A stretch of 56,313 bases of DNA from NCBI GenBank assembly GCA_001938485.1, contig MQRK01191162.1:1-56313 (forward strand), in the 5' to 3' direction. The notes below the pieces were generated by a model. It did not search any database and had not been told where the DNA came from. It was given only the letters and a program-made list of their open reading frames with translations. The position numbers were made by a program, and so were the translations under genes. Shown here in pieces: positions 614 through 51,306 of the stretch. The stretch's first letter is position 1, and every line of letters begins with the position of its first letter. Source of the stretch: Girardia tigrina (taxonomy: Eukaryota).

Positions 614-3600
614 TTGGGCCTCCCATCTCTGTAATGGTATTGAGCCTAAGGCTCTTTAGAGGGTCCACCCAAACTAAAGTCCTTAAGAGCCCTCCGATAG
701 GCCTCCTACGGGGTCAGTGGCCTTCCGCCTCTGAGAAGTCGGCTTGCCAGTAACGAACGACCAACCATGGAACTTGGTACCATGGCCGTACATGCCGTTG
801 GCTGTTACGGTGNNNNNNNNNNNNNNNNNNNNNNNNNNNNNNNNNNNNNNNNNNNNNNNNNNNNNNNNNNNNNNNNNNNNNNNNNNNNNNNNNNNNNNNN
901 NNNNNNNNNNNNNNNNNNNNNNNNNNNNNNNNNNNNNNNNNNNNNNNNNNNNNNNNNNNNNNNNNNNNNNNNNNNNNNNNNNNNNNNNNNNNNNNNNNNN
1001 NNNNNNNNNNNNNNNNNNNNNNNNNNNNNNNNNNNNNNNNNTGAATATGAATCCTTAGGAAACCAGCGACCTTGTATTCCCTCGGACAGTGTTGACATTG
1101 ATATTTTCCTTTCTTCTGACGTGGCTGGGCTTTCTTCTCTCTTTGTTTTCGCGGAATTGGGCCTGCTCCATTGTGATCTCTTCTGTGATGCCTGTTCAAT
1201 TCCTTCACTTTTGAATAATGTCTATGACAGGCATCCATCGGGCAGCTGTGTTCTTTCAGACGAGGTAGCACCAGTCTTAGTGTTTGCTCGTCCCCGCTTC
1301 TTTGGATTCTCTTCAGTCGGAATACTTTCTCGATCTTTCCATCCATCTTCAGTAAGTTTTCCTGCAGAACGNNNNNNNNNNNNNNNNNNNNNNTGTACTC
1401 GGCTCCAAAGAGCCAGTGAGCATCCACTCTGAGATATTCTACCAGATGTTGCTTTCTCCGACCGCTGATCTTCTTTCCTCCGATGAGTTCGCATCCACTG
1501 ATCTGCTTGACGTTGTCCGGACATTCTCCTAAATTGACCTTGGTATTGTGTACGATTCTTCTCCGTGCGATGATATCCATTGGGCTTTGAAGTCCAATTG
1601 ATATCTCATCCATCCTGATCCTTTCGGCTTTCGAAATCCCCAAAGTTCGCCGAGTGCATAGATTGTGAAATGCTTTTAGCTTTTTCGCGTGTACTTCATT
1701 TGTCCTCCAATTTTCACAGCTGTAGTAAACCACCGAGAATACACAGCGGCTAATTATGTTCTTCTTATTCCAGAGAGACAATTTGTTGTTCTTCAACACT
1801 GGTCTGATCGTCCGTAATTTCGCTGCTCCTTTCTGAATTCTGGCTTTGATGTCCGTACCTGAGCTTCCTCCACTTTCAATTATCGAACCCAGGTAGCAGA
1901 ATTCGTCCACCCATTCTATTCCGGCATTCAGCTCATCTCTTGCCGCAATGTACTTCGCTCCATTGAGATTCAGGATCTTTGTTTTCCCAATGTTGATTTT
2001 CAGCCCCATATTCAAGAAAGCAGTGTTGAGACACTTGAGATTCCGTTCGATATTTCCATAGTCTTCGTCCAGTAATCACAGGTCGTCTGCATAAGCAAGT
2101 CTGTTCACGGTCAGCTCTTCCCCATTGTATTTTAGCTTCACACCACCTGATAGTCCTTCTTTGATCGAGGTCTTAATTACATGATCAAAGACAAGGTTGA
2201 ATAGTAGAGGACCCAATACGCAACCCTGACGGACTCCTTTGTCCATACTGAATTTATACTTTCCAATGCTTCCCGTGAAACCTTCATGAAATTTCATGAT
2301 GATACTTAGCATTCAATCCTGTATTCCAATTCCTTGAAGGCAATCCCAGAGAACTTTCCTGGTTCCGCTGTCAAATGCCTTTTCAAGGTCGATAAAAATA
2401 GCAAATACGTTTATGTTCCGGTATCTGGCCTCTTCTTGTATCTTTCGTAAGATACCAATCGCGTGCGCTGTGCTTCTGTTTGGTCTGAAACCAAATTATC
2501 AGTCGTCCAGTATCCTTTCAAGATGTGGCAGTAATCTATTTGCAATGATTCGGGCCATGATCTTTCCTCCTACATCAAGTAGGAATATACCTCTATAATT
2601 ATTCAATTCCTTCTTGGAACCCTTTCCTTTGTATAGGATCATGACTTTCGCCGTTTGCCAAGCCTCCGGGAATTCTGCTCTTTCCTCCCATATGTCCACG
2701 AAACATTGCTGTATCTTCTTAGTCAACTGGAGACCGCCCCATTTATATAGCTCTGGAATGNNNNNNNNNNNNNNNNNNNNNNNNNNNNNNNNNNNNNNNN
2801 NNNNNNNNNNNNNNNNNNNNNNNNNNNNNNNNNNNNNNNNNNNNNNNNNNNNNNNNNNNNNNNNNNNNNNNNNNNNNNNNNNNNNNNNNNNNNNNNNNNN
2901 NNNNNNNNNNNNNNNNNNNNNNNNNNNNNNNNNTCCTTCACACTGCTTTGTACAGTACAGAGAGAGGATTCCTTCGTTTCACTATTGCAGAGTACTCTGA
3001 GCTCCGTGTATAACTCAGAAGTCTTGCCCATACATTCTCTGTTGAGAATTCCTTCTATTTCTTGTCCAATTCCCTCAATCCTCTCTCTTTTCCATTTCCT
3101 GAGATGCCGCAAGATGTTCAGTCTTGCAGCCTTCCACGTCGAATATGTTCTTTCACATCTATTCTGAATGTATTCTTTCCTTCGCTTCCATTTCTCCTGC
3201 AGTAGGGGTTTCAGCTCTTCTAGGTGTCCGTTTAGCCACCTCTGATTGAGCGGGACTTTTTTCTTTCTGTATCTTTCTGACGTCTTCAAAATGACCTTCT
3301 CCACATCATCCCAGCTCACAACATTCGGACAATCCTGTCCTATGTCACTACTGATGACCACTTTGTTGTTCTGCAAGGAAAATCTGTCAATTTTTCCTTT
3401 TCTTTTCTTTCTTCTATCATTCGCCAACTTGAGTACCTCATTGTTGTTGATGATCCATATCGTTAACACGACTAAGTCTTGGTCAGAGCCGCAGTCAAAA
3501 TTCGGGTAGCTTTTGACATTGCTTATCCTGTTGCATCTGCTTTTTTGCGACAGGAATAAGTCGAGTAGTAGTCTTTTTCTCGTTGCCGGGTGTGTCCAGC

Positions 3601-4444
3601 TAGTTCTCTGCGCCAACTTATGTTTGTAGAAGGTGTTCTCTACTCGTAAGTTGCACGCGTCAGAAAGATCTATCAAAAGATCTCTGTTTTCTGATGTTAC
3701 TGTTGAACTAGTGTAACACCCGACAGTCTTTCCGATTTCCTCCATCCGATTAAGTCGACAGTTGAAGTCGCCTCAAACTATCAGTTCGTGTTTCCTCTTT
3801 TCAGCCTCAGTCGTCGCCCTTTCGACATGTTCTTGCAGTAATGCGAAGAACTCTTCTTTTTCCTCACTTGAGTGTCCGCTGTCAGTCGGAACGTATACCC
3901 CCACCACTGTGATCGACCTTTGGGGTATATGACAGAGGAACATTCTCTCACTGATCGCTTCGAATTCGATGTTCATTGAATCCCCAGATTTTACCATCAT
4001 GGCTACGCCTTTTTCCCTTATGCTACTCGTGCTGCCACTATGATGGATCCTCCAATCCCCGAAAGAGGCAATGTCGGTTNCGATCCAGTGCGTCTCTGTG
4101 AGTATACACATATCAATTTTCAGTTTTTCGAAGATACTGACGATGTTTAGTATCTTTTCATCGGTTAAGCCTCGAACATTCCAAGTTCCAACCCTCAGTC
4201 CACTGCACGTGGAATCCTTAACGAGGGATCCCCCTCTCGGGAGCTTAATGACTTCGGGTCCTTCCAGACCCCTTGTTTGAGTTTTAAAAGCTATGTCTTA
4301 GCGAAGGATAGGGTTGCTAGCCCCGTGGATCCGTCCACTCATTTAGCCTAGGTCATGGGGCCCCCTTTCTATTTCTAGAAAGGGAGGAGACCCTCTTTCT
4401 AGTTCCCAGGATACACCACGGGGAGGCGAGCGACATTGTATCCC
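614..4444 (-). mobile_element. Full-length RTE-like non-LTR retrotransposon (APE + RT + C-terminal C2H2 fingers), decayed
   Basis: APE (LRVGTWNVRG, CILTETHW, VYVPT, GSDQDLV), RT (YRGIFLL, KGVRQGCVLGPLLFNL, LAYADDL, KINIGKTK, FCYLGSII) and C2H2 fingers. Flanked by the 9-bp direct repeat CTCTCCGAT at 605-613 and 4445-4453. Several stops and frameshifts. Confidence 0.9.
4335..4444 (-). ncRNA. HDV-like self-cleaving ribozyme forming the 5' end of the LINE
   Basis: Minus strand: P1 GGGATAC/GTATCCT (G1-U wobble), P2 TCGCTC/GAGTGG, P3 GCC/GGT, L3 TCCCCGT, GG for P1.1, long P4 with CCCTTTCTA-GAAA-TAGAAAGGG, J4/2 GCTAAAT. G1 is the first base inside the TSD. Confidence 0.88.
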
Positions 4445-4905
4445 CTCTCCGATGTACGAGTTTTGACACCCGTGACAATTAAATTTATATACCAGATTAG
4501 CTTGCAAATCACAANCTCTCCGATGTACGAGTTTTGACACCCGTGACAATTAAATTTATATACCAGATTAGCTTGCAAATCACAAACTGTTTTCGATTTG
4601 TTTGAGAGGAAACTTTGAACTTTGGATGTGACAGAGACTACTTTGGTACTACTTATTGTTCTACAAATACTCTTCTTAAACGCTCTAAATCCTTTAGAAT
4701 ATGGAATTTTAATGATTTGTTTGTATTCTTCAGTATTTTCTTCTTTTAATTGTTTTTTAACTCGTGCATCTGTACATAATTCGTCTAGTGTTACCCTAAT
4801 ATTGTGTTCTATTTGCTTGTTTGTATACATATTGTCCCTCAAGCGCCTTCTAAGAATATTTAAACCCTGATTTGCAATTTCAAAACTGAGCAACAAATTA
4901 TTTTT
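4445..4905 (-). mobile_element. Penelope-like element, upstream part (RT thumb/linker and N-half of GIY-YIG), 5'-truncated
   Basis: ORF 4399-4896: ...IKIPYSKG...NLVYKFNCHGCQNSYIGE. Joins in frame to TNRHLKTRIREH at 604 once the LINE and one TSD copy are removed. Confidence 0.88.
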
Positions 4906-5671
4906 TACCGAAGAGCTTCTCGAATCTCTTCACAAGCGCATTTTAAAACAGCGGTACAATGAAGCATCAGTTGTGCTTCAATATTTGTACAACCCGCAAG
5001 CACAGTTATTAAAAAAGGATATGGTTAAAAGATTTTTGCATAAAACTAATGATGCATCTTAAACCATTGAAACAAGAAGAAAATGGTGAAATAAATGGAA
5101 GTGAATACTGACATTTCTCAGAGTTTAAAAGAACGAAATGAGTCATCACCATAGAATGACCATCTTACAACTGAGTACATACTCCAATAAGTTATTGCGT
5201 CTGTCTTATCAAACTGAATTACAATACCTAAAACAAATCCGGCAACCTATTCAAGTTTGATTAATTATGAGATTAATATTGCAGTCCAGTCAGGCAAACG
5301 AGGGCCCCATTTAGAGAGTGTATATCAATATTTACTGACAATTTCTCCTACGTCTGTGGAATCGGAATGAGTCTTCTTTCCGGTGTATACCCATACAATA
5401 AGATCCACTCCAATTTGAATGATAACACTCTTGAAAAATTATCTTTTTCTTCGCTTAAATCTTTCGCGATTATTCCTGTGTCACAAATAGATGTTATTTA
5501 TTCGATTTATTATTTAATTATAAATTTATTATTTTTCGCTTGAATATTTTTATATTATTTGTTTGTTTTTTATTGTAAAAATAAAATTATCAGAATGATA
5601 TCTGATCCCAGGATTGTAATGTAATCCCGAAATCCCGGGATTGTAAATATGCTCCGGGATTGTAATCCCTA
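4906..5671 (+). mobile_element. hAT transposon remnant (transposase C-terminus and right end)
   Basis: GKRGPHLESVYQYLLTISPTSVESE*VF...LNDNTLEKL resembles the hAT dimerisation motif (PTSVxxERxFS). Subterminal (C)GGGATTG repeats end in ...TGTAATCCCTA. Confidence 0.7.
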
Positions 5672-8717: not shown

Positions 8718-11700
8718 TGTTACGGTCCAATACCAATTTAAAACATAACCATAAAACAATTAACAAGAAGAATTAAACAAGACTTTAAAAGATAATACAT
8801 ATATTGAAAATGCATCACAAATGTAGGAGCCCATACAAGGAATTGAGAATTTCGAGGAGGGTTGTGGGCCCTGAAAAAAGAAAGAATCAATTAGAAGTAA
8901 GCCCGGAATCAATAAAGTTACCTGTAGGACTACCCTTTATAGTTACGTGGCCAACCGACCCCCATGCGTAGCCCCGTAGATAATAAATCCAGGAGTGGAG
9001 CTTGAGAGACCGCGAAATGTTCCGAAGAAAAGATATACTCCTGTAAAGAATCAGAAATTAATTAACCAAAACAAAGACTAATTAAAAACTTACCATGAAT
9101 CACCCGAAAAGTCCAAAATTAGAAGTCGGCTGACAATTTTTCTGAGTCATTGATGACTCGGCCGCATGCAAACTCCGAAAATATTCAGAGTGTGCCACGA
9201 CACACAGGCAAGGTTCCTATAATATAAGAAAAATTTTTAAAATTTAAAAATTTTTACGAAGACACACCTACCCGAATCGACCAATCCGCGTGAAGGAAAA
9301 GTTCAGACACTTGCCTGGCAGAAATCAATTGGCCCGCGAGGATTAGTAGGGTGTCTCACAAACCCTATAAATACGTTAATCACTTTATCATTATGACACA
9401 ATATTAAAACGCACCTTGCAATAGCAACAATTTTAAAAACAATTTTTGCGAATACCAAATCTCTTACGACATTTTGAACGAGTTTCAATCCGACGCCGTA
9501 ATTACCGAAGAATCTCAAGCGACGTACTAGCAGTCCGACGAATTAGGAGCGCAAATGAGCTTGTCCAACTTATCGACGAGAAATTCACAGGCGTTTCGAC
9601 CCGAACGACGCGCCGACGAGCGAAGCACTATACACAACTTACCAAGAGCGACTTACAGAACGGACCTCCGGACGCCTGCATCATCATTGTAAATTTAATT
9701 TTTATATTTTATCTCAGTCTAATTATGTTATCAATAGTTCAATTATTTATCAATGATTAAAATAAATGTATTCGAATTTATATTTTGTTAATTAGTTTAC
9801 AGAGTTTTAGTAACATTTCAGTCTAAGTCGTAAAATTTTCCACTAACAGTCGTCGCCGCCGATCACTGTCCTCAATATGACCTCCAGGGTAGTAGAACAA
9901 CTCGTTGAATATTTTGAGAGCGTTCTAGAAATCTTCCACGAGCCCGAAGTAGATAACAATGCTCTCCGGGACGAACCTAAGTTAGTTATTATCGACGGGA
10001 GGTCGATATCGTGGAGCGAGATTCTCGAGACACGCGAGTATGACGGCCCGATCCCGCAGAGCGAAAGTTGGTAATCGCGGTTGTAATCGAGCGGATAAAA
10101 AAAAATATATTTTTTTGTAAATAAGAGTTTATTTTCATTTTAGTTCTTTAGAATTTGTCTGATGTATAACTTATCTTAGTTTTAGCCTTGTTTATAGTTC
10201 GACAGATTAAGATTTATTTAATGATAACTTAATTTTAGTGGATTTAATTATTTTGTGATCGATAAATGAGTACTTAAGGTGATTGAGAAACATCTCAGTA
10301 GTCGTATGGCATAAAATTAACCGTTTGAAGGGTAGGGATACATGGACTTATGTTAAGATGGTAATCTTTTAGAGGCGTCTACATGTATTTTCGCTGCTAT
10401 AAGTTCGTAAAAAGAAAATACGTTTAACAGTTCTGTCTCGAATTTATGAAAAATTTTGTTGAGGAAAATCCCGTGGAACCAAGTTCTGAATTTATCATAA
10501 TCGTTCATAGTTTTACGCTCCTGAGTTAGCTAGTAACCGTTATGATCTATTTTGACCTCATGCCCGCCGATGTTAAATAACTAATTGTTTACGACTGACT
10601 AACAAATTTCGTATCACCTTGGTCACTATTGAATTTAATCGATGTAAATATTTTGATCGATCGGATAGAGTTAAAATTCACGAAAACATTATAGATAAAA
10701 AACGGGTTCAGTAAAGAAAATAATTAAGGCTAATTAATCGAGTTAGTTGTCGGCATTCTCTCGATTTAATAACGCGATTTGAATTTCGATTCCGTGCTGC
10801 AAATCAAAGGTCTAATTCCGAAAATTCAAACAAACGTTTTTTTTGTTTATTTATTCGTTTATAATTATTGATTTACTTTTAACTTATTTTTATACGTTTA
10901 TTATTTATGACCGAATTTAACTGATTCTACTGAAAAATTCCGAATTTGATTTTTATAAACATAGTTTTATTTTAAAAGAAATCGTTTTATTCTTAAATCA
11001 CCAATTTACTAAGCGGGAATTGATTTGGAGAAATCAAGGTTTAAGAGAAATTTATTGATATGAAATAAGTAAATGTAATAGTAAAAAATCTAATAGTTTA
11101 TGATTTAAATTAGATTGTCATTTAATGATTTAATGATATTTAGAATTTAATAACAATAATAAGAACCTAATTTAATAACAATATTCGAATTTAATGCTAT
11201 ATAGAATTTAACTTAAGTTTTATAGGCATGTTAGCGAATAGTTTATTTTGCAATTAGAATTTGGAGATTTAAAACAACCTATTTTACCGGTAGTAATTTT
11301 ATAGATTAAGCGATCAATTGAAAAGGAATATTCCCAACAAATGAACCTGAATGTTTCATTATTTGTTTGGACTTCGATATGGAAGCGAACCAGTTGAAGT
11401 AAAATTTATAAGGTAAATTTTTAAAGGAATGATTTACGACCGAATTATAGATAGTCCGTCGAGACATTAATAAATTGGATTGAGTTGACACTGATCGAAA
11501 TAAATCTTAGGAGTATAACGAACATCTACACGAATAGACTAGTACCAAATCGGATCGATATGAGTAGGGCTATAATACGTGTAAAATGGGAATATCAGAA
11601 GTTATTATAGATTGTCGTTTCTTTAGTGTTGCGATAGTATTCGACATGTAAACAAAAATTTTTCGTGATACAATAAAGTTAATAAGTATAGTTTAAAATC

Positions 11701-11939
11701 ATCCCCGAGCGACGCTCAGCTAGGTGGGGGGCCCATAGCCCATCCCGTCTTAATCGGAACCCGAAGGTCCTTCAAACTCGGCACTACCAGGCAGATGTCG
11801 AGCGAGAAGAGACGTCCGACCCGACATATAGGTAGAAATAAGTAAACCGTATAATCGATGTTGGGTTGTGGCTGACCCTTAATAGCCACTGTGGGCTCAA
11901 GAGCTTTCAAAAATGTTTGTGCTCAAATGGGTCGTGACA
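8718..11939 (+). mobile_element. Putative very long (~3.2 kb) 5' LTR
   Basis: Begins TGTTACGGTCC and ends GGGTCGTGACA (imperfect inverted ends). Internal TATA-like CTATAAATA at ~9365; followed by a PBS. The left boundary is inferred. Confidence 0.55.
9877..10074 (+). CDS. Small acidic ORF of unknown function inside the putative LTR
   Basis: 65-aa ATG ORF in a GC-richer patch, 28 nt after a branch/acceptor-like CACTAACAG (9841-9849). Confidence 0.35.
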   Translation: MTSRVVEQLVEYFESVLEIFHEPEVDNNALRDEPKLVIIDGRSISWSEILETREYDGPIPQSESW

Positions 11940-11942
11940 TTT

Positions 11943-11959
11943 TGGGGGCTCAGGCGGGA
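11943..11959 (+). promoter_or_regulatory. Primer-binding site, tRNA-Pro type
   Basis: TGGGGGCTCAGGCGGGA 3 nt after ...GTGACA; 14/17 match to the canonical Pro PBS TGGGGGCTCGTCCGGGA. Confidence 0.8.
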
Positions 11960-12074
11960 AAGGCGATTTCCTCGCCCCGAACAACATAAAATTCGAAGTA
12001 AAATGATGAAATATTAAAATATATAAACTAGAGTGCTAAATAAAGTATTATTATATCGATAATGAAATTTTAGT

Positions 12075-12386
12075 ATGGCAACCAGAAAGGAAAAACTAGT
12101 CGCCATCGTAAGACCTATGGAACGCGACCCGGAAGTAGTCGAATTGGAGGAAAAGGTTCGCACCCTTGCCAGATTAATAATGCAGAGAAAAGAAAATCAA
12201 CGACAAATGGAAAATCTGCAGTACAGATGGGAGACGTGCAGTCTGGGAAACGCAATGAGACCAGAATTGGATGCACTAAACAGGCATATAAAAGAGAAAA
12301 TGGACGATTTTTGGCTACGCTTGCGACGGATCGACCCCGAAACAAAAAATACCGTGACTTCCGAGCGTGTTACCAAGAATTTCTGA
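12075..12386 (+). CDS. Short coiled-coil-like ORF 1 of LTR-element cargo
   Basis: 103 aa, E/K/R/L/Q-rich helical; TTTTAG-T-ATG start context. Confidence 0.5.
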   Translation: MATRKEKLVAIVRPMERDPEVVELEEKVRTLARLIMQRKENQRQMENLQYRWETCSLGNAMRPELDALNRHIKEKMDDFWLRLRRIDPETKNTVTSERVTKNF

Positions 12387-12566
12387 CAATGCAACTACAG
12401 GATGAAGCAAGAAGCAGCCTTGAGCGCATGCAATATCTTGAATTAGACATAGACAATCAGTTTACTTACGTTTAAATTTGAAATAAATTTTTCGGTGTAT
12501 TAGAATGATTTATATATTCATAAAATAATCTCAATATAAGAAATTGATATTATGACACATTTATAT

Positions 12567-13024
12567 ATGGACACGGAATCAAGGCGACATATATTGAGGA
12601 GTTGTTCGCCGACGCGGATAAACTCAAAGCAGCAATTCAGAAGGAAGAGGAGGCGCTGCAGCAAAAACGGCAGAGACACGACGAGCGGGACACACAAATC
12701 AAAGACTTAGAAGCCGCAGAAGCCCAGCGAGGAAAAATTCAAATTTATAAGGAATTAAAGAGGAAAATATTCGTCGGCATCCGAATCTCCCAATTCCATC
12801 TCTCTCAACTGCATAGACAACAGTCCAAATGCCTGGACGAGCTACGAGCAATGTTGCTAGGCGAGCAGGATGGACTGAATAAGTTGAAAAAATATGCCAA
12901 GATCACAAGATCCCTAAGCGAAGAGACACAAAGATACGTGGAGCTCAACGACGAGCTGATCCGAAGTCAGAAAAGGCACCTCACTGCGGAGGGTGAAATT
13001 AGTGACGAACTAGTATATCGATAA
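12567..13024 (+). pseudogene. Short coiled-coil-like ORF 2 (ATG at 12567 one frameshift away from the 140-aa frame)
   Basis: ADADKLKAAIQKEEEALQQKRQRHDERDTQIKDLEAAEAQ... heptad-like; GC-richer block between AT-rich spacers. Confidence 0.5.
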
Positions 13025-13188
13025 TAATTGTTAAATAATGTAATATATGTGTTTAAAATAGTTTACTTGGTAACATGAAATTAAAATAACATGAAATTAA
13101 AATAATATGAAATTTGATAACATAGAATTAAAATTTAATATGAAGTAATAAGAATTAACAGAAAAATAACTGTAATTATTAATCAGAG

Positions 13189-13510
13189 ATGGAAACACCA
13201 AACCACAGTGCACCAGGGCCGATCCTATAAGAGCTGTACGACTGGCACAACAGATTGGTAGCGGAGCTACAGGACAACTATGAAAGGTTGGGAGAATTAA
13301 TGATGACCCAGAGTAGCCACGACCGCTGGATTGAACTGGAAGACGGGCGAGTAATGAGCAGACGACAAGACCCGTACCCTCGAGCACATTGGGAAGAGTA
13401 TAACGATGTGAGTCGGCGAATAAGGAGGAAGAAAAGGGATCTTGCTAAATATGCCGAGCAAATTCAAAGCCTGATTACCGAAAGAAGACAAAACCGCAAT
13501 ATACGACAAT
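13189..13510 (+). pseudogene. Short coiled-coil-like ORF 3 (one in-frame TAA; ends in an (AT)n run and gap)
   Basis: METPNHSAPGPIL*ELYDWHNRLVAELQDNYERLGELMM...; TAATCAG-AG-ATG start context. Confidence 0.45.
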
Positions 13511-13572
13511 ATATATATATATNNNNNNNNNNNNNNNNNNNNNNNNNNNNNNNNNNNNNNNNNNNNNNNNNN

Positions 13573-13617
<45 letters not shown>

Positions 13618-13735
13618 TTTGTCTAGTTGTTAATGTTAAATATATGTTTTCTCTGTGCATAGTTTTATGAATTATCTCGTAAATAGTAGATAAAACTAAT
13701 AGCAGATAAAACTAATAGCAGATATTTGTTATAGA

Positions 13736-14043
13736 ATGAATCGAGGATGGAGGATAGCAAATTGCAGAAGAACTTACGGAAGGCCGAGAGCAAAAAGATG
13801 AACCGGCTAATAAAATTACACTTCTAACTGATGGAACTGACAGAGAGCATAGAGGCCAGCGAACAAGAAATAATGCGAAGGAGAACAGAAATACTGGTCA
13901 TCAACGTTGACATCCAAATCGATCCAGGAGTGTCGCAGCGAATTAAAGAGCGACGGGCTTACGACATCCAAACTCGGGAGAACCGAATCCGAGATTTGAC
14001 GAAAAGATTAGACGACGACGCCGGAAAAGGGGAAAAGTATTGA
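13736..14043 (+). pseudogene. Short coiled-coil-like ORF 4 (one in-frame stop)
   Basis: MEDSKLQKNLRKAESKKMNRLIKLHF*LMELTESIEASEQEIMRRR... (ATG 13747); TTATAG acceptor at 13729-13734. Confidence 0.45.
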
Positions 14044-14521
14044 GCCGATACGTAATCGAAGCCTTTCAACACAGAGGCCTCTGGATTCTCAGTGGAAAAC
14101 GAATCAACGATGACCGAATAGAATTTAGTTATAACCGTGAACACTATAGTGTGAGAGACCTCATCGCTAGTTACCGAAAATCATCGGGTGTATAATTTAA
14201 TAAATGTATTAATCTAGTATCTTTGTTGATTGCATTAAACATTAAAATAACAATGGATATTAAGTATGATAATTTCAGATAAATGAATCAGGCCGATATC
14301 AAAACCCAACTACAAGCTAGTTTCCGAGAAGCGGAAGAAACAAAACTAACAAGGGCCGCACGAACCATAAAATTAATGAGAATTACAACATTATTATTTT
14401 ATTACTTACTAATGATAATTGTAAAATAATGAATTATAATAGTCTATGAATTAAGAATTTTTTAAATAACATCCTTGTTTTATTTCAGTAGCGAGAATTA
14501 ACACTGCATATAAAATACAAC

Positions 14522-15544
14522 TCATCCTGAAACGCGCACACTCTCACACATACACGAAGCACAGTAAAGGAAAAATTGTTGGAATTTCTCTCGTAATTTG
14601 TTGTAATGTTCGTCGGTTTCTTGGGGATGATACTTATCATGTAATTTCGTCAGAATCGCTTCACAATCCTGCCATTTTGATTGATTTGTATTGAGAATGT
14701 GCAGAAAAATCACATATTTTTTTTTATCGTTGAGCAAAAGTGCCCGGTTGGAACATAAATAAATTCGCCGCATGCATCGGCCCGAAGGCGTCCTCTGCAC
14801 CGGCCCTGGTTGCCACAGGGGTTCTTTCACTAGCGGCCTCCCCCCGCGGCCTCTTTCAAAATCTATCCATGTGCCACACATAAAACTGATGTAAAATCGA
14901 GTCTCGGTTTCTTGCTCCAAACTCACGATTTATCGCCCGACTTGATTCATCGATCTTCTCCAAATCAAACGGTAAGCCAACGAGCGCTTGTTCCATCACC
15001 ATTTTCACAGTCTCATTCAAATTCTCCTTGATATTATCTCTAAGAAACCGCCTAAATCTCGACAAATACTCGTGAAATTGCAGATAATCTTGACTTGACG
15101 CGATTCGCATACCCGCTTTAATCGATTTCATCATTATCAGAGGTTTATTCTTTTCTCGTATACTGCAAACGCGAGACACTGACAATCAATATTGCCCGGG
15201 GACAAAGTCAATAACGGCTGGAGAAATCGGATTGCCTATTTAAGGGCCGCCTGTGTTCGGACTAATTTTCCACCGTCGATCTTTTCTTCAACGGCTTCCT
15301 GTTCTTCATTCTTCTCTTTGGTTTTCATTTTCTGGATTTGTTCCCTCTTGTCCTGCTTTTGCTGTTTTTTAATCGCCTCATTTTCCGCTTTCCTCTTCTG
15401 TCTCCTCTGCTCACTCTTTAACTTCTTCGCCTCTCCGATCGATAAATTCTCCAAATTTATCTCCTCCTCTCCGGTCTCTTTATCGATCGGGTGTTCAAAT
15501 AAATAAAATTCAAATGATTGCGGGTAATTTATTTTATAAATCAA
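14522..15544 (-). pseudogene. Antisense ~330-codon gene of unknown function, broken by stops and frameshifts
   Basis: Three successive minus-strand ORFs (15236-15544, 14856-15185, 14522-14926) with protein-like composition: K/E-rich N-terminus, globular-looking C-terminus. Confidence 0.5.
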
Positions 15545-15983
15545 AGTTTTTAATTAATTAATTTTTTTAAGGATTTCAAAAGGTTCTCTAAGCGTTTTTC
15601 GGGTAAATTCGAGACTAGGGTCGGCCTATTCTGGGTGGACTACAACGGGTTCAATTTTCAGGCCCTTAACGCTATCGGGTGAGTTTTTAGGACCTTTTCG
15701 GAAATTTCGACTTTAATTAATTCATTTTTTAGCTCACGATTAATCTGAAAGATTTTTTCTTGACGAACCAAAGGGAATAATGGACTCTCCAATCTCGTCC
15801 GTCATTCCACATGATCGGGGACCTACTTACAACTATTGGTTTATATTCGAGCCAGACTATATCCAACTTTACCTTCTCTCAAAGGTTCCTGGCGTGCGAG
15901 GTGGTGGGGTTATTGGGTAGTTGAGGATCTCAAACGTAACAACAGCGTAACAAACACTACCCACATATTAACCGACAATACGT

Positions 15984-16229
15984 AAAATCATCCCCTATTG
16001 ATACTGAACTAGGCGGGGGGCCCATAGCCCGTCCTGTCTTTAGTCGAACCCGAAGGCCCTTCGAGCTTGGCACTACTAGCCAGATGTCAAGTAAAAAGAG
16101 GCGTCCGACCCGTCTACAGACAAATTCATAAACACACTTATAAAATGACCTTAGGTTGTGGTTGACCCTTAATAACCACTGGGGGCTCTTGAGCTTGCAA
16201 AAATGTTTTAGCTCAAGAGGGTCGTGACA
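15984..16229 (+). repeat. Diverged direct repeat of the LTR 3' end (11695-11939)
   Basis: Colinear similarity from AAAATCATCCCC to GGGTCGTGACA. Confidence 0.85.
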
Positions 16230-16937
16230 GTATGCCTTCGCTAATTTTGATGTTATATTGAAGTTTAGGGTCTATATCAGTGTCGAGCAACCGTTGCGCC
16301 GTAAAAAATTCTGGGGTCGCCACGAAAATTTTTGTAAAATATTTTAAATAGTTAGAGTAATTGAACTTAATATTGAACAAGTTATTGAAGTATTGCTGTA
16401 GCTATATTAGTCCTATTTTTGCATCGTTGTAAAACACACAGTAATTGTAATTACCTTCGAGAAAATTTATAGTGAGTCACACAGGTGCGCTGCGAAAACA
16501 ATATTTTAGATTTATTGCACCCCGAAAAAAAGTTTTCAGCTTAGTGCACCGCAACTCGAAAAAGGTTGCCCGACACTGGTCTATATATTGTATATTGATT
16601 AATAAAAATCTTTTAAAAATCTAGCATCATATAACAAATTACGTAACAAAGTTTTTCAAAAATCTTTGGTAAAAACAAGTTAAATAATGACTCATTTTAT
16701 AAATTATTCAATTTTGAACAACTTTTTTGGAGTAAACATATGCCCTAAAATGAACATTAACAAAGTTATTCAATAAATTATAACTTTTAAAAATTTTGAT
16801 TTATCGATATTTAAATTAATTTCATCGATTACAACAATAAATCGATCAATTTGTACTTAAAACATTTTATTAGTCAATATAAAATATATAGACCCTATAC
16901 TTCAATTTAACATCAAAATTAGCGAAGGCATACCCTG
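16230..16937. mobile_element. Tc1/mariner-type MITE, left TIR clipped by the LTR end
   Basis: GTATGCCTTCGCTAATTTTGATGTT...AGGGTCTATAT is inverted at ~16886-16937, ending ...GCATACCCTG followed by TA. Confidence 0.8.
16278..16578. mobile_element. hAT-type MITE nested in the mariner MITE
   Basis: TIRs CAGTGTCGAGCAACC / GGTTGCCCGACACTG with a perfect 8-bp TSD GTCTATAT (16270-16277, 16579-16586). Confidence 0.9.
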
Positions 16938-24600: not shown

Positions 24601-27600
24601 TGTGAGAGGTGGTTGCAACATCAATATCCGAATTCATTTTTTAACACCAAACTTTATTTTTTTAGTTTTAAAATATTGAATAAGCATATTAACATTAAAA
24701 TATTTTACCTTTTAAAAAAATAATAAATTTTTCTGACGAGATAAAAATTTAAATTAACCCCTCATATCCCCTTTCGTTATGAATTTTCTCAATTTTTTTA
24801 TGTCTCGATCTAAAATTCTTCCATCTTCATTTATTAGTTTATACCTTCTGTCGTGTGATTTCTCTATCACTTTATACGGTCCTTCATATTTATCTTTACT
24901 CTTTATCCCCGTTTCCACCTTGACTAGTACTTCATCTCCAATTTCGAAATTTCTTCTGGTTGTTGTGTCTTCTTTTTCTTGCTGTACCTTTATGTCTTGA
25001 CTATGCCATCTTTCTCTGTATATTTTCTTACCGAATATAATTTCTACTGGGCTCTTCCCTATTGTTTTCTGAAAAGTTGCGTTAATTGTGAATTCTATTT
25101 CCGGTAGTAGTTCCTCCAAGTCTAATCTTTTCTTTGTACGTAACGATGCGTTTAAATATTCTCTAATCGTCCGAAATTGTCTTTCTACTATTCCATTCGT
25201 ATTATGATGGTACGGACTCGAGTAACACATTTTTATATTCATTGATTCTGCCATGTTTTTGATTACTTTTACTTCGAATGTCTTGCCAAAATCTGTATGA
25301 ATTTCCTTCGGTGCTCCAAATGTCAAGATTCATTTGGTCATTATCGTGTCTTTTATGGTTATTTCATCCTGCTTGCTAATGGCTGTCAAAGATATGTACC
25401 TACTAAACTGATCTATAATTGCAACAATATACTTTTTTCTTCTCTAAGTCTCTTTTAGTGGTCCGCATATGTCTATGTACACTTTCTCAAATGGTTCATT
25501 TGCGACCAGTGTCACCCGTTTTTCCTTTGTAGCGGTCGTTAATGTTTTACTTTTTTGGCATGCTTCACATTGTCCAATTACTTCCTTTATTATTTCATTC
25601 CGATTGATCATGTCATAATTTTCTGAGATGTATTTCGTTACTTTCACTGCGCCCGCGTGCGACAATAGTGTATGTATTTGTATGATCATTTCTTCTCTTT
25701 TTGACTTTGGTATCCAAATCTTCCCCATGTTTGTTCTTATTATGCCATCTTCGGTGGTACGCTTTCTGTCTTTACCTGAACTTGGGTCTCTTTTAATTTC
25801 TTCTATTTCTTCTTGTTGATATTTGAATATCTGCGATGTGTCCAGCACGTTGATTCTTCGAGTCTTTATCTTCATGAGCCATCAAGCATTGTGTACATGT
25901 ATCACATGTATTCCGAGACAACATATCCGCGTTGGAATTATCTGTTCCTTTTCTGTATTCTAAGTGTATGTCCAGGCTTGATAAATAATTTATCCATGTC
26001 TGAAATTGCGCCGTTATTGGTTTTTTTGTTTTAACCATAAACGTAATTACCTTATGATCCGTTCTCAAAGTGAATCGCTTTCCGTATAAATAATGATAAA
26101 AATGCTGACAGAAGTAATACATTGCCAACAGCTCTATCCTAGTAATGCAGTATTCTTTTTCATGATTATTCATGGAGTGTGAACGATATGCAAAACTCTC
26201 TCACGTCCGTCCTCGTCTCTTTGGTATAATACTGCTCCAATCGTGTCGAAACTGGCATCAGTGTCCAGTATAAATTCTTTCTAGAAGTCTGGGAATCCTA
26301 GAATCGGTGGTGTTGTTAAAGCCTCTTTCATCTCTGTAAATGCTTCATCACATGCGTCAGTCCATAACAATTTCTTCTTGTTCAATCCACACAGTTGTTC
26401 CAATGTCTTGGTTTTTGTTGCGTAGTCCTTAATAAATCGTCCGTAATAATTGCAAATTCCAAGGAAACTTCTTAGATTCTTTACACATTTCGGTTTTTCA
26501 AATGTCTTTATGGCTTCTAATTTAGATGGGTCCGTCTGTATATCTTTTTTCATTAATTACATGTCCCAAAAATTTAACTTCCGTTTTTAAGATGTGGCAC
26601 TTTTCCGGATTGATTCTTAAACCTGCTTTCCCGGTTTGATCCAATACTTTATCCAAAGTTTCGTAATATTGTTCCAACGATTTTGAAAATATAAGAATGT
26701 CATCTAAATATACCACTGTCTGTTCTATGTCTCCGAGCACCTTTGTCATGAGTTCCTGAAACGTTTCCGGTGCCACTGCTATACCAAACGGCATTCTATT
26801 GAAACAAAATTGACCTAGCTTTGTGGAAAATGCTGTTTTCAACTTTGAATCTTCCTCTAGTTCGACCTGGTAGTATGCATTACCTAAATCAATTGATGTG
26901 AAATATCTTGATCCATACAGTCTGTCCATCATTTATATCATATTTGGCATAGGAAATGCCTGTCTCTCCGTGACTAGATTTAGCTGTCTAAAATCCAAGC
27001 AAATTCTAACATCATTCTTCTCTTTCTTCCATACACAAATCATCGGTTTATTCCATGGTGAATTACTTTTCTTAATAATGTTGTTTTCCCACAAATTCTT
27101 AATAGTCTCATCGATCTTTTCTTCCAGATTAACTGGTTGCCTATGTGGTCTAAGGTTAATTGGAGGTCCTTTCGTGTCTATTCTATGTTTAATCATCGTC
27201 GTACATCCGATATTCCATTTATCCGCCATAAAAACTCCTTGATGTTTTTTAACAATATCTACAATCTTTGGTTTATCTGCAATTTTCATAATTTCCATGG
27301 CTCTTTTGAATCTTTCCTCGTTTGAAACCTTAAGTCCAAATTTGGCTTCTAAGTTACATACTTGATAAAATTGTTCGTTCACACCATTTTCTTTCTTTTT
27401 CCAATGTAACTCGATTCCAAACGTCATCTGCAAAGTTATTCCTCCTATAATGTCTGGTTTTATGTCATTTACTACAATGAACGTTATATTTCTCCGTTTT
27501 TCTTTAATTTCTACGTCCACTGAAATTTTACCCATACAATCTAGCTGACTACTGCCCACACAGTTTAATTTAATATCAGCCTTTTCTAATTTTACGTTCG

Positions 27601-29174
27601 TTAGTTTCTCAAAAATCTTTCTATGGATTACATTTACTCTTGCACCTATGTCTAATAAACAATCTTCTACGTTACCTTGTATCATCAACTTTATACTCGG
27701 TCGGCCTTGCATTCTATCATACGATATACTTTCTGCTTTCCATTCATCTATTGACAAAATGCTGATAATTTCTTCTGTGTTCTTTTCTTCAATTGTTCCC
27801 ACTAAACATCGTCCAAGCTTGTCCTCAAAAGTTTCATTCTTTATAAATTTCCGTACTTTATCATTTACTCTTGCTTCGCTTATCTCAACATTCCTTTCAT
27901 CGTTTTGGGAGTCGCTGGTATCCTTTAATTTATTGCCCCGACTGGCTCCACTTCTGTCGAGGTGTTGCCTTTTGAATGTTCACTTCCTGTAACCGATTCT
28001 TCATATTCCTCTTCAATGTTATTCACGAATCTTCGATTATCTCCTAGTCTTCTGTCTTCTCTCTCTCTATATCTTTGTTGATTGTAGCCCGATCATCGAT
28101 AGTTATTGTCCCCTGTATTTTGCTGTCTTCTTCTGCCATTAAGGTTTGTATAACATTCACTTTCACTGTGATATTTATCTTGAAATCTTTTGCATTCGAT
28201 GTTTGGACAGTTTCTTCTTACATGTCCCCGTTGTCCACAACTATAACATTTTATTGGTCTCCTTTCCGAACAATTTCTTATCATGTGTCCTTCTTTTCCA
28301 CATCCGAAACACTTGATTGGTTTTCTTTGTCTATACGTTTCACTTGTGTGACCTACTTTTTCACAATTTCTACATTTAACCACTTTCATGCCTTGAGCGT
28401 ATTCTGTAGTATTTCTACCAACCCCTGTCTGATTTTGTCCGTATTTACTCTCTCCTGTTACTGCTTCTCTGTAACTCCGGGGTCTGTTTTGCATCCCCTG
28501 GTCTCTTACTACATACACGTCTTCTGTCACACTTTTGACATCATGTACAGCCTTTATCTTTTCTTTTATCTCATCTATTCCTTTCACTTTGTTAAGTCTC
28601 ACTTCCTTTTTTATGTCCACATCATCACAACAATGTAACAATAATGCTTCCGTGAGGGCCTCTTTTGACAAGTCATGTTTCAAGATCTTGGCTGCGATTT
28701 TTTCTACTTTCTCAAAAAATACTTCCGGTATATCTTCCTTCATCCTGTACCGGCATGCCTCAGTCAGGTCTTTGAGGAAGTTCGAGAGAATGCCTTTCTC
28801 AATCGGTCTTATCTACCGCTTTGTATCGATCTTTCAGATCTCTCACCAACAAACAAACGACTATTGTCTCTTGTTTGGCCTTCGTTATTCCTGCAAAATT
28901 AAAGAATGTTTCCCATTCTTCAACAAATGTCTCCACATTATCGCATTTCCTGTACTTTTCAGGTAACAGTTGATCCGTGAAGATATTCATTGCAGCGTTA
29001 GTCACCATGTGAGAGGTGGTTGCAACGTCGATATCCGAATTCATTTTTAGAACACCAAACTTTATTTTTTTAATTTTAAAATATTGAATAAGCATATTAA
29101 CATTAAAATATTTTACCCTTTAAAAAAATAATAAATTATTCTGGCGAGATAAAAATTTAAATTAACCCCTCATA
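24601..29174 (-). mobile_element. Compact full-length Ty3/Gypsy LTR retrotransposon (gag-PR-RT-RH-IN), decayed
   Basis: LTRs 29008-29174 and 24601-24766 (~165 bp), PBS-like TGGTGAC, PPT GAAAGGGGA. Gag with CCHC knuckles, PR LLDIGA, RT YLDDILI, RH LDTDAS...ELLA...TDHK, IN H-H-C-C, IDICGP, HTDFG, NGIVER, GPY. Candidate TSD TATCT/TATTT. Confidence 0.95.
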
Positions 29175-32165: not shown

Positions 32166-34179
32166 TGTGAAGAACCGAAAGTGTCTTCACTTTTTAAAAT
32201 AAAAAAAACGAGAATAATATTTCCAAAATATATTTCCAACGTCTAACAACTTAACATTTCATTTTGTCAATTTGTTAATCGATTTAATTATATTATAGGA
32301 ATTAAATCATTACACAAGCCCCCCTTTTGTAAGTGGAGCGTTACGTTATTTCAAACAATTTGAAAATTATGTTCGAATCTTGATTTGATTTTGTTACGGA
32401 ATTCGTTATTTAAATGTGTGAAATCAATTTCCTCAAATGGTTTTTTTGCACAAAATCTGATTCGTTTCTGATTTACAATNNNNNNNNNNNNNNNNNNNNN
32501 NNNNNNNNNNNNNNNNNNNNNNNNNNNNNNNNNNNNNNNNNNNNNNNNNNNNNNNNNNNNNNNNNNNNNNNNNNNNNNNNNNNNNNNNNNNNNNNNNNNN
32601 NNNNNNNNNNNNNNNNNNNNNNNNNNNNNNNNNNNNNNNNNNNNNNNNNNNNNNNNNNNNNNNNNNNNNNNNNNNNNNNNNNNNNNNNNNNNNTTTTTTA
32701 TAAATGGATGATATTCCTTTTGATAATCGTGTTTTATGCAACTGTCGATGTCTGTGGTGAAAACCGTCTCTTGATTTGAAATATGAAGATTTGTTTGGTT
32801 AAGAACAAGATTTTTTTTTCATTTCTTCGTGTTGCGAGTAATTGTCCTTGTGGGTTCTGGATGATAGGTTTTCAGTCGAAGTGGTCTGTACTGTCTTGTT
32901 CTGATATGTTTTGTTAAAAGTTTTAACGTCATTTTGAGAAATATGTAGAATTTCGTGTCTTGGAGTCATTGGACTCAACAAATGTGTTGTGGTAGGTGTT
33001 ACATTAGGAGGAGAAAGATTCTGGGATTTTGTAGTAGACANNNNNNNNNNNNNNNNNNNNNNCGTATTAGAACTATTATTACTAGAAGATTGCAAAGGAG
33101 ATTGAGGAGCTGCTGTTAATCCAGCTAATGTAACACATGGTGTTGCAGTGGTCGAATCAGTAGACTTCGGTCTAGTTTGTAGAGATGCACTTGTTGTGCA
33201 TAATTAGGGTTAGGAATTACGGCAGCAGGAATTTGATGAACGTACTGAGGTTGCGGTAAATACATCGTTGTGGTCGATTGAGGTAACATCATAGCTGCAT
33301 ATTGTGGAGGCATCACTGTTAAAGCTGAATAATGTTGCACAGGAACCTGACATAAAAATGATTCATTTTGCAAAGCATATGGAACTGGTCTATTATATGA
33401 AACTGTTCCAGAAATTTCTTGTCGAGGATATAAATGTTTCTTTCTTACAGCTTGTTTAATGTTTAATTTTCTCTCTTTAAAGATCAATGTTTCAGATTCA
33501 TTCTTGGTGAGATTTTCAGCAATTTCTTCATTTTCAAAAGTCACAAATCCATAGCTTCTTTTCGATAATCCNGTACGATCATTTATTATATTTGCGTATT
33601 TAATTGGACCATAATTCGAAAAGAAAATTTTTAATTCGTCCTCAGTTGTATTTGATGTGAGTCCATCCACAAAAATTCTGTTTGGTATAAGTGTACAAAT
33701 TTTAGGTATTGATACGTGAGAAAAAGAATTGAGCTGATTTCTTTGATTGATCTTGTTATGCTTCACTTTCTTTATAGTTTTAGAAATTCCCAATGCCAAT
33801 AAAGAGTATTCAACATTTTTTTGTACATCGAAAAGCAGTCTTTCCATAGCGTTTAATAGAAAATTGTATTTTATGTTCAACTGCGATAAATTATCTTGTT
33901 GATCTTGATATGTGGATAATGCTTCCTGGATTAACTGATTGAAATTTCTTTTTGAAGAACTTTTCTTTTTTAATGGAGGCATCTTCTTTTTTTCTTTTTT
34001 TTCTTCTGACACCAATTGTGAAGAACCGAAAGTGTCTTCACTTTAAAATAAAAAAACCGAGAATAATATTTCCAAAATATATTTCCAACGTCTAACAACT
34101 TAACATTTCATTTTGCCAATTTGTTAATCGATTTAATTATATTATAGGAATTAAATCGTATATAAATTAAATCATTACA
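32166..34179 (-). mobile_element. Non-autonomous short-LTR retrotransposon carrying a boule/DAZ-family gene
   Basis: LTRs 34017-34179 (5') and 32166-32314 (3'), TG...CA, near identical. PBS TGGTGTCAGAAG (34003-34014, tRNA-Leu(CAA) type); PPT AAAAGGGGGG (~32319-32328); perfect TSD CTTTT (32161-32165, 34180-34184). No RT/IN in the sequenced part. Confidence 0.93.
33125..33982 (-). CDS. boule: Boule/DAZ-family RRM RNA-binding protein, intronless, with an extra N-terminal helical region
   Basis: TLIPNRIFVDGL...TTEDELKIFFSNYGPIKYANIINDRxGLSKRSYGFVTFENEEIAENL...ETLIFKERKLNIKQAVRKK parallels the BOULE RRM (GTVIPNRIFVGG...DRAGVSKGYGFVTFE...KKLNIGPAIRK). Followed by a P/Q/Y-rich tail. ATG at 33982. 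Confidence 0.88.
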   Translation of the reverse strand: MPPLKKKSSSKRNFNQLIQEALSTYQDQQDNLSQLNIKYNFLLNAMERLLFDVQKNVEYSLLALGISKTIKKVKHNKINQRNQLNSFSHVSIPKICTLIPNRIFVDGLTSNTTEDELKIFFSNYGPIKYANIINDRXGLSKRSYGFVTFENEEIAENLTKNESETLIFKERKLNIKQAVRKKHLYPRQEISGTVSYNRPVPYALQNESFLCQVPVQHYSALTVMPPQYAAMMLPQSTTTMYLPQPQYVHQIPAAVIPNPNYAQQVHLYKLDRSLLIRPLQHHVLH

Positions 34180-38200: not shown

Positions 38201-38900
38201 GGCCCAATTGCTTTTCGGGACGACCACCTCACTCAACAACGAGTTAGTATTCAATGAGGCACCAAAGAATGACGACATGTTCGCAGTGGCATTCGAGAAC
38301 TTTCTGCAAGGCAACAGAACCCCACCAATTTCAGATGAACAGCGTATCTTCGTCGCCAGAGAACTTACAACCTCCCAAATCGTGTGGATACAAAAAGAAA
38401 ACAGGAACTTTCTCGAAAGTCGCTACACCAGTCATACAAGCTCATAAACTATTGCGATGAATAACAACACCGCTAAAACATTTGTCCATGGCAAGGAACT
38501 CACTGTAAATAGTAGCAACTTAAAGTCATGTCTACTATTGAAGGATGTCACCCTCCAACAACTCTAATCAAAACAAGATTCAAACGTCTCACAACAAAAA
38601 AAACGCAACTTCTATGATTCCACCTGCTGCGAACACCACAATGACTCTATCTCAGAGAAACTTCGTCCCCCTAGCACAATTCCATGATAGCACCTTCAGA
38701 ACCAAGACTGCACAGGGTCCAACCGTAACTATAACACCCAGTCACAGTACAAAACACACATATAAAACAACACACAGCAGACACATTGAGATACAACTCA
38801 TCTGCGTTTCTACAGATTAACCATTCACTACAGCTCTCCAGATGTCCAATTCCACCAGAACAATCATACTTCTACTATACTTCGCATTCTTTAGCAAGGC
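35228..38900 (+). mobile_element. Old, heavily mutated Ty3/Gypsy element
   Basis: RT YPMSLIKDIL...FSSPDLSKDYHQIPI...YIDDIIFAS; RH TATSNIAIGAVL...FFSHKLSPARTRYLAFSRELL. Boundaries approximate. Confidence 0.8.
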
Positions 38901-49742: not shown

Positions 49743-51306
49743 TGAGTTCGGGTTTTGTTGACGTTATTCTTATGGGAATTTCAATTTTATGAAGAAATAA
49801 TTTGTCACTTGGAGATTTTAGATTTGAGTAATCTATATTAATTAAATTGGTATATTAAAACAAATTTGTTTTATATTTTTGGATTTATTTAATGTCATAG
49901 AAAAAGAATTATTATTATTACTATAAACTAGTAAATCAAAAAACATTTTTTTATATACATGCATTATGCGGACAAAACTCTACTTTATTATTTTTTTTGT
50001 TATCTTTTATAAATATCAAAATTACTATAAAATTTTGATACATATATGGGTAGCAAGCAAATATAAAGGATGGAAAAAAACACAATTCATGTATTTAATG
50101 ATAATATATATATTTCGACGGATCACCTTTTATCATCAGGTTGCAATTTGATTGTTGATAATTGATTTGTCGAAATAAATGTTGTCATTAAATATATATT
50201 TTTAAATGACTGAATTTTGTTTTGATCATTAAAAAATTCTCATCCGAATTGAAAATTTAAAATAATATTATTATTATTTCAATTTTTTATTGCTATTATT
50301 TCGTAACAAAATATAAAAACTAAATTGTAATTTTTAAAATTACGAAATGATTTCGAATTTTAATTGCAAAAAAATTTACTTTCAAGAATGTAATTTTCGG
50401 AAATAATTTGTATTTACTTGGATTTTTGTCTGTTTTGTAAGGTATAGAATTATTTGGGTGTTGGGAATTATTTTTTTATTTTTACAATTATGTTAAGACT
50501 TGGGGAATATTTTGGCTATAATTCCCCTGATTATCGGATGAAGACTGGTTTGATAACATGCTCAACTTACCCTTCCCTACTATGTCATCTATAAACATAA
50601 AAGCTAAATTGTCATTTTGAAATTACAAAATGATTTGTAATTTCGATTATAAAAAAAATAAAAATGTAATAAAAGAATTACCTGCAAAAATGAAATTTTC
50701 GAATTGGATTTTCATTTGTGGATAATAATTTTTAATTGCTTGGATATATGTTTGTTTTGGTAAAAAAATAGAATTTTTGAGTAAGGGGCATTATTTTTTA
50801 TTTTAACAATTATTTTCATCCCCTTTATTAATTTATTTAAAGCTAGTCGGACTGAAATTCTAAGGAATTACAATCTCAATAGCTCATGGAGTCGTATGAA
50901 ATCCAACTCAACAAAAAGAGAATTTAATATTTTCTATATTCAATATTATATAAATTTAACAACAACCAACAAAAAATTTATTAAAATTTTTATTTTATAT
51001 TAACAAGTGTTCAGTTTCTAATTTTTTTAGTTAAAGTAAAATTTAAATTAAAAATATTTAAATATATATATATATATGTAATTAACCTTGGTAGAAATGT
51101 TAAAAATAATGGTATCTTTCTTTTTAAACATTAGGCCTTGCATTTCATCATTTTGTTTTAATTTTGCAACAATAAACACTGAGAATTACATAAATTAAAA
51201 TTTTCAATGTTTATAAAATTACAGATTATCTGCTTTTCTTAAAGAAATAAGAACACAATACTATAAATAACTATAGATATTTTTTACTACGACATAAATG
51301 TATACA

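Follow-up and report, generated by a model that had tools for sequence, protein, structure and literature searches.

A Burro-like, env-bearing Gypsy element of Girardia tigrina carries an array of selected accessory genes with their own processing signals, possibly expressed as a spliced-leader-resolved operon

INTRODUCTION

The systems closest to the element reported here are the Burro (GYPSM1) elements of planarians, which have been described with an internal region of up to 25 kb between their long terminal repeats (LTRs) and for which a review names one accessory open reading frame (ORF) upstream of gag, of the MATH/TRAF type, while remaining silent on how accessory ORFs are expressed (PMC6431247). 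In a stem-cell model animal, Burro elements occur in large numbers and are active (PMC8532177, in part). Operons resolved by spliced-leader (SL) trans-splicing offer a further point of comparison. Those of S. mansoni have a median intercistronic distance of 99 bp, with a threshold of 300 bp (PMC12582326), and SL trans-splicing is reported in Schmidtea planarians. The corresponding distances in M. lignano have their peak close to 100 bp, and in this species an acceptor needs no donor upstream of it to receive an SL (PMC8629364, in part). Finally, the C. elegans element Cer1 makes an SL1-spliced subgenomic RNA as well as a genomic RNA that bypasses consensus sites and stays unspliced (PMC3315495, in part).

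Here, we analyze a 56,313-nt stretch of G. tigrina DNA (contig MQRK01191162.1 of assembly GCA_001938485.1, positions 1 to 56,313; "the window"), in which a first-pass annotation, made from the letters alone, had described an array of short coiled-coil ORFs, most with their own splice acceptor. The element type and one upstream accessory ORF were known already; selection on each ORF, positioned AATAAA hexamers, a failed search for a splice donor, and paralogy among the ORFs are new. We found no description of this module layout or of its expression in the literature searched, a search outside which lay the original Burro genome paper, the planarian SL3 paper, and supplements.

RESULTS

In the window lies a Gypsy element of the Burro-like, env-bearing type, represented by its 5' part and broken off at position 14390. 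Its features are as follows:

8853..11939, + strand: 5' LTR, at least about 3 kb long, terminating ...GTGACA
11700..11939, + strand: conserved structured 3' end of the LTR, likely R-U5, from the alignment of copies
11943..11959, + strand: tRNA-Pro-like primer binding site (PBS), directly after the LTR end
11998..11999, + strand: GT of the donor proposed in the first-pass annotation, poorly kept among copies
12075..12475, + strand: ORF1, acceptor AG at 12072-12073, frameshift near 12347; 132 aa in open copies
12482..12487, + strand: AATAAA, 85 nt upstream of the ORF2 start
12567..13024, + strand: ORF2, about 151 aa, acceptor lost in the window copy, frameshift near 12592
13189..13522, + strand: ORF3, about 110 aa, acceptor AG at 13185-13186, in-frame stop at 13228
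13736..14195, + strand: ORF4, 153 aa, acceptor AG at 13733-13734, broken near 13759, 13825, and 14025
14199..14204, + strand: AATAAA, 84 nt upstream of the ORF5 start
14283..14390, + strand: first 36 codons of ORF5, acceptor AG at 14277-14278, cut at 14390; 148 aa in open copies
14393..16229, + strand: foreign sequence past the break, comprising pieces of a younger high-copy repeat and a second LTR end

An LTR copy in contig C227798 matches window positions 8853-9375 and 11681-11939, and the LTR end at 11939 is common to the aligned family copies. A PBS, which we take to be that of tRNA-Pro, follows the LTR end in 12 of 20 family stretches by the motif used. Much of what the first-pass annotation had read from the letters was borne out: the five blocks are indeed richer in GC (40 to 48%) than the spacers (16 to 23%), their ATGs lie at 12075, 12567, 13189, 13736, and 14283, and a YAG stands 1 to 4 nt upstream of four of the five. 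The acceptor of block 2, guessed to be mutated, is lost in the window copy and kept in its six closest sister copies. Block 5, previously read as a short ORF with its end near 14430, is the first 36 codons of a 148-codon gene, since similarity to the family ceases at 14390; the remainder of ORF5, ORF6 to ORF8, and gag-pol are absent from this copy. The 3' end of ORF3 enters a TA repeat and then an assembly gap. All five ORFs are damaged. Frameshifts lie near 12347, 12592, 13759, and 14025, stops interrupt the reading frame at 13228 and 13825, and judged by these lesions the window copy is dead.

The repeat that follows position 14390 is about 95% identical among its own copies, and the second LTR end (15983-16229) is 78% identical to the first. 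Pieces of this young high-copy repeat (6682 first-look candidates) occupy 14393-15941 and include two short minus-strand ORFs at 14856-15553. At 16230-16933 there is a 700-nt element, likely a MITE, with 48-nt inverted ends (96% complementary), which begins exactly at the LTR end. Judged by eye from translations, the rest of the window includes a broken LINE (714-4929, minus strand), a broken ordinary Gypsy element (24754-29119, minus), another RT remnant (35382-38820, plus), a single-exon RRM gene (33125-34042, minus), and a C2H2 zinc-finger gene (48261-49763, minus).

The last 245 nt of the LTR (window 11700-11939 and 15989-16229) form a conserved RNA structure, with compensatory change in 5 of 50 predicted pairs, and the sharp conservation boundary suggests that transcription likely starts near 11700. 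A possible pseudoknot near 11863-11889 is 98% paired, with one invariant helix and a covariation score that was reached by 13 of 500 shuffles. Comparison of the structured end with Rfam returned no family and a single chance row. In most copies, the LTR 3' end also holds an inner repeat of the PBS start. Short ORFs lie inside the LTR at 9877-10074 and 9461-9692; the former carries a branch-point-like CTAAC and an AG 27 nt upstream of its ATG, and it has homologues in three other copies.

A search of the element's own genome gave 285 candidates, 40 of which were scored; 60 stretches were taken and 48 analyzed, with two near-identical duplicates (L026 and L083) dropped. Longer copies read LTR, PBS, ORF1 through ORF7 in order, a non-coding stretch, ORF8, and gag, whereas five copies (L033, L034, L035, L044, and L046) have the alternative gene order 1-2-X-3-5-6-7-8. 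The first-pass annotation had the array standing in place of gag, with no gag or pol. This does not hold for the family, since other copies have gag-pol downstream of the array, and gag is missing from the window because of a deletion in that copy. The gag-env-pol region starts about 6.5 kb downstream of the PBS, behind eight accessory ORFs, and its polyprotein runs in the order Ty3 capsid/gag, CCHC, ubiquitin-like, weak BCL2-like, fusion glycoprotein, protease, dUTPase, RT, and RNase H. In copy C200761, the polyprotein start matches Ty3_capsid (E 4e-7), Retrotrans_gag (E 2e-5), and zf-CCHC (E 2e-5). A single open frame of 1097 aa combines a match to Monjiviricetes_fusion (E 3e-82) with matches to protease and dUTPase. 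The ubiquitin-like match (E 7e-4) falls under the curated cut-off, and the BCL2-like stretch has Bcl-xL as its best solved-structure match, a weak one (E 0.076). No MATH/TRAF, BIR, or ankyrin match was found in the pieces scanned, a scan outside which lay ORF7 and parts of the broken polyprotein. Copy C250484 holds, in order, RVP, dUTPase (E 5e-4), RVT_1, and RT_RNaseH between two LTR ends 24.8 kb apart; these ends are only 69% alike and may not bound one whole element.

The same genome contains a distant sister family, with an ORF1 homologue about 40% identical and partly different genes, in which the acceptor-ORF layout is repeated in the 8 loci inspected of 12. A YAG lies 0 to 2 nt before the ATG in 9 of the 17 ORFs listed for it, and 6 of these 9 have an AATAAA 78 to 117 nt upstream. 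This second Burro-type family (L109, L112, L113, and L116 to L119) has its own accessory genes, whose acceptors directly abut the ATG, and a branch-point-like motif, CTAAT. A look-alike stretch, sought by position in the other genomes compared, was not found.

We compared selection on each ORF in its own frame and in the alternative frames. Sense-frame dN/dS was 0.15 to 0.36 for pairs less than 12% apart and 0.07 to 0.27 for pairs at least 18% apart, in all nine ORF types (7 to 33 copies each), while shifted sense frames gave 0.61 to 1.86; the antisense frame that shares third positions gave 0.19 to 0.45, the expected shadow. Each ORF is thus under purifying selection in its own frame. Stops are kept in 30 of 30 copies of ORF1, 32 of 33 of ORF2, 6 of 7 of ORFX, 26 of 34 of ORF3, 30 of 31 of ORF5, 25 of 25 of ORF6, 23 of 23 of ORF7, and 11 of 12 of ORF8, and ORF4 is 153 aa long in 15 of 17 open copies. 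Given own-frame selection and kept stops, the ORFs are not exons of one protein. We therefore agree with the first-pass annotation that they are separate genes: the copies do not join into one continuous ORF, and acceptors and ORFs are conserved among them. Its further statement that most blocks end in their own stop stands for the family, but some of the stops in the window copy are lesions.

Several of the accessory genes are related to one another. ORF1 and ORFX are paralogues (profile probability 98.5%), as are ORF4, ORF5, and ORF6 (95.6 to 97.8%), from which it follows that the array grew by module duplication. In structure prediction, ORF1 gives a three-helix bundle (pLDDT 84.1) and ORF4 a long antiparallel helical hairpin (pLDDT 80.7), so that "coiled-coil," as the ORFs had been called, is a fair word for predicted helical models even though the fold matches are generic. 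The best ORF1 match was the STAT2 coiled-coil domain (Z 11.5, rmsd 3.6, 118 aligned), with syntaxin Habc at 10 to 11; the best ORF4 match (Z 10.8, rmsd 2.8, 121 aligned) was tied with many unrelated hairpins, and PspA (Z 10.0) and CHMP4B (Z 8.9) also appeared. These generic helical matches speak neither for nor against ESCRT-III or SNARE mimicry, and a fold search for viral matches at E 0.001 or better gave none. In sequence searches, the ORFs scanned had no Pfam match beyond the curated cut-off and no match to solved structures below E 0.025; the relatives found (three each for ORF1, ORF4-6, and ORF3, and four for ORF2) are all unnamed. By these models and searches, the accessory proteins appear to be orphan helical bundles.

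A conserved acceptor-type signal accompanies each ORF, as the first-pass annotation had proposed for most of the window's blocks: of 232 family starts, 219 have a YAG no more than 6 nt away, compared to 93 of 568 non-start spacer ATGs, and 6 of the 13 starts that lack it are ORF2 copies scored at the second of two close methionines. When we recounted without demanding a pyrimidine, leaving the window's own ORF2 (no AG) unscored and dropping seven rows without a usable start, AG was present in 222 of 225 starts and was preceded by a pyrimidine in 208. In pairwise comparisons, the AG of an acceptor is retained at a rate of 0.84, and other spacer AGs at 0.54. The AG-to-ATG distance ranges from 0 to 6 nt within and between ORFs and among subfamilies while the YAG is constant; the signal is therefore tied to the AG and not to the ATG, a pattern that points to splicing rather than start context. 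The gag gene has its own acceptor in all 10 copies that reach it.

The gag frame behind this acceptor (L031:9495-9985 and nine other copies) opens at CTG in six copies and TTG in four, and it runs for 143 codons without an ATG. This extension is under purifying selection, with a dN/dS of 0.36 against 0.73 and 0.84 in the other frames, and gag thus likely has a non-AUG start.

The spacers also contain positioned AATAAA hexamers, which are new here and absent from the first-pass annotation. In six of nine junction types, an AATAAA lies upstream of the next start, mostly by 80 to 100 nt: 24 of 27 copies at spacer 1-2, 6 of 7 at 2-X, 5 of 5 at X-3, 25 of 25 at 4-5, 26 of 26 at 5-6, and 22 of 23 at 6-7, where shuffling leads one to expect 0.28 to 0.63 (0.36 at 1-2 and 0.32 at 4-5). 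The remaining three types do not conserve it (ORF2-3, 10/18, with a shuffle value of 0.50; ORF3-4, 1/22; ORF3-5, 0/5). When copies were compared in pairs, an AATAAA positioned 60 to 125 nt ahead of the following start was retained 1480 times out of 1683 (0.88; the copies are related and the pairs not independent). The corresponding fractions were 0.36 for A/T hexamers of other sequence, 0.09 for AATAAA at other positions, and 0.15 for TTTATT; at the 4-5 junction, AATAAA was retained in 410 of 410 comparisons. Median spacers are 96 to 166 nt across the nine junction types, which places the co-oriented genes of the array within the 300-nt operon threshold.

The first-pass annotation had proposed a splice donor, AA/GTAAAA, at 11998. 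This candidate fails: the nearest alignment column has GT in only 12 of 20 copies and GC in 2, and it is missing in whole subfamilies. Among the 20 aligned copies, no donor is conserved within 440 nt of ORF1, and nothing shared was found in the next 330 nt upstream or, by motif listing, out to about 3 kb. Other candidates were rejected as well: a GTAAGT in U3 belongs to a motif that occurs repeatedly, and other copies fail to retain its G at the corresponding position, while a GCGAGT after the PBS and an AG|GTGGGG in an LTR stem either fail conservation or sit in stems. Several GT columns are kept in 17 to 20 of the 20 copies, but they lie in RNA stems or lack donor context. Weak or subfamily-specific donors are possible.

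A search of public runs listed eight, three of which held 0.07 to 0.34 of the words, one of these being only guessed to be RNA. Our RNA check used assembled contigs of four public runs, placed on sister copies L084 and L073. None of the 8 joints and 11 joints in these contigs was a donor-to-acceptor junction, and no SL-bearing RNA appeared among the minority of loose ends that were listed; it is among loose ends that an SL would be seen. Since contigs drop rare forms, the missing junctions are no proof of absence. Several contigs cross spacers unspliced, which fits genomic RNA or DNA carry-over. One 185-nt contig that seemed to start exactly at the ORF1 acceptor was rejected as a candidate message end, as it aligned through the acceptor on another copy. 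Two patterns were used to look for spliced or processed genomic copies in which the ORF2 or ORF5 acceptor is fused to foreign sequence; one gave no hits and the other gave 10, all of another repeat.

DISCUSSION

Having a single promoter and a single capped RNA is regarded as a limit on retroelements. The family described here has eight selected genes and gag, each with processing signals, which shows a way round that limit. Judging from these signals and by analogy with flatworm operons, we think it a little short of an even chance that the array works as an operon, with one LTR-driven transcript that is cut at polyadenylation signals and trans-spliced gene by gene. The long RNA would be cleaved at the AATAAA sites, and host SL trans-splicing would re-cap the message of each gene, gag included, at its acceptor; the SL RNA would serve as the donor, and genomic RNA would arise when processing is skipped. 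The array may gain or swap genes as whole acceptor-ORF modules. The small helical proteins may act as protein-binding adaptors or decoys, and one of them could conceivably protect or export unspliced RNA. The fuller proposal, that an env-bearing retroelement, likely an endogenous virus, expresses eight accessory genes and gag-env-pol as an SL-resolved operon and swaps acceptor-ORF-polyA cassettes, is one we hold tentatively and as falling short of probable.

The first-pass annotation had left open whether its polycistronic cassette was resolved in cis or by SL addition. Its separate genes with acceptors stand, and the positioned AATAAA together with the lack of a conserved donor modestly favors trans-splicing over cis-splicing, while no junction was seen in the RNA contigs. 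Flatworm SLs end in AUG, and the distances from AG to ATG are not biased toward placing an SL-borne AUG in frame. Cis-splicing from a common leader, in which each message would consist of a short LTR leader joined to a single acceptor and would end at that gene's polyadenylation signal, would resemble the strategy of complex retroviruses or the adenovirus late unit. We regard it as a serious contender, if a rather doubtful one. The same acceptor and AATAAA data fit it, and in several subfamilies a GTAAGT precedes the conserved LTR end by 30 to 130 nt. Furthermore, LTR elements typically use spliced messages to express their extra ORFs (PMC5408684, in part), and a weak upstream GT can outcompete the SL in flatworms (PMC4558846, in part). 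However, that GTAAGT is the repeated motif that loses its G elsewhere, and the donor at 11998 is unconserved. Neither a junction among the contigs nor a genomic copy with foreign sequence at the ORF2 or ORF5 acceptor came to light, and a chain of strongly kept polyadenylation signals would presumably cut the supply of gag-pol unless the downstream RNA were rescued.

Two further explanations seem improbable to us. Each module could be its own transcription unit, with promoters in the AT-rich spacers and an acceptor that trims a short outron or intron, which would suit the freedom with which modules duplicate and swap (ORF1 with ORFX; ORF4 with ORF5 and ORF6; two gene orders) and the TATAAA right after the gag acceptor; yet the spacers are only 96 to 166 nt long and already filled with a stop, an AATAAA, and an acceptor. 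Alternatively, unspliced RNA could be translated by reinitiation, leaky scanning, or shunting, with the AG as start-codon context. The contigs seen are all unspliced, as this would predict, but the motif conforms to the acceptor pattern (T)TNYAG and its distance from the ATG varies between 0 and 6 nt, two to four upstream ATGs lie between the PBS and ORF1, and the gag acceptor is far from any ATG. Moreover, because gag sits behind eight ORFs, scanning from the cap presumably cannot serve it, and we consider translation of unspliced RNA an unlikely account. All of these mechanisms need a way to spare full-length RNA.

The layout offers a testable reason for the size of Burro elements and for their gene gain. 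If SL-resolved operon expression is the correct reading, it would explain how Burro elements became giant, and dependence on the SL would bind the element to hosts and cell types that use an SL. If the array is instead expressed by plain cis-splicing, this is still an unusually complex LTR element.

The element shares with Burro/GYPSM1 its long LTR, the polyprotein order of gag, CCHC knuckle, env in frame before the protease, dUTPase, RT, and RNase H, and accessory ORFs upstream of gag (PMC6431247), with the weaker ubiquitin-like and BCL2-like matches as possible further points of likeness; it differs in having eight orphan helical ORFs, each with an acceptor and mostly with an AATAAA. Bdelloid Vesta, Juno, and TelKA elements and Terminons likewise carry extra ORFs, some of them coiled-coil, that are said to be expressed from spliced messages (PMC5408684, PMC6431247, both in part), but in Vesta-type elements ORF3 is single and downstream of pol (PMC5408684, in part), and Terminons are Penelope-like and not LTR elements (PMC6431247, in part). 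Cer1 is a Gypsy element and a one-site precedent for SL trans-splicing, although it has one SL site and one extra protein and no tandem array (PMC3315495, in part). The SL-resolved operons of flatworms and C. elegans have in common with the array co-oriented genes about 100 nt apart, up to eight or nine genes, and, at six of the array's nine junction types, a polyadenylation signal followed by an acceptor (PMC12582326, PMC8629364, both in part). Those operons, however, consist of host genes, whereas the array belongs to a retroelement that also needs full-length genomic RNA and for which SL addition is proposed here.
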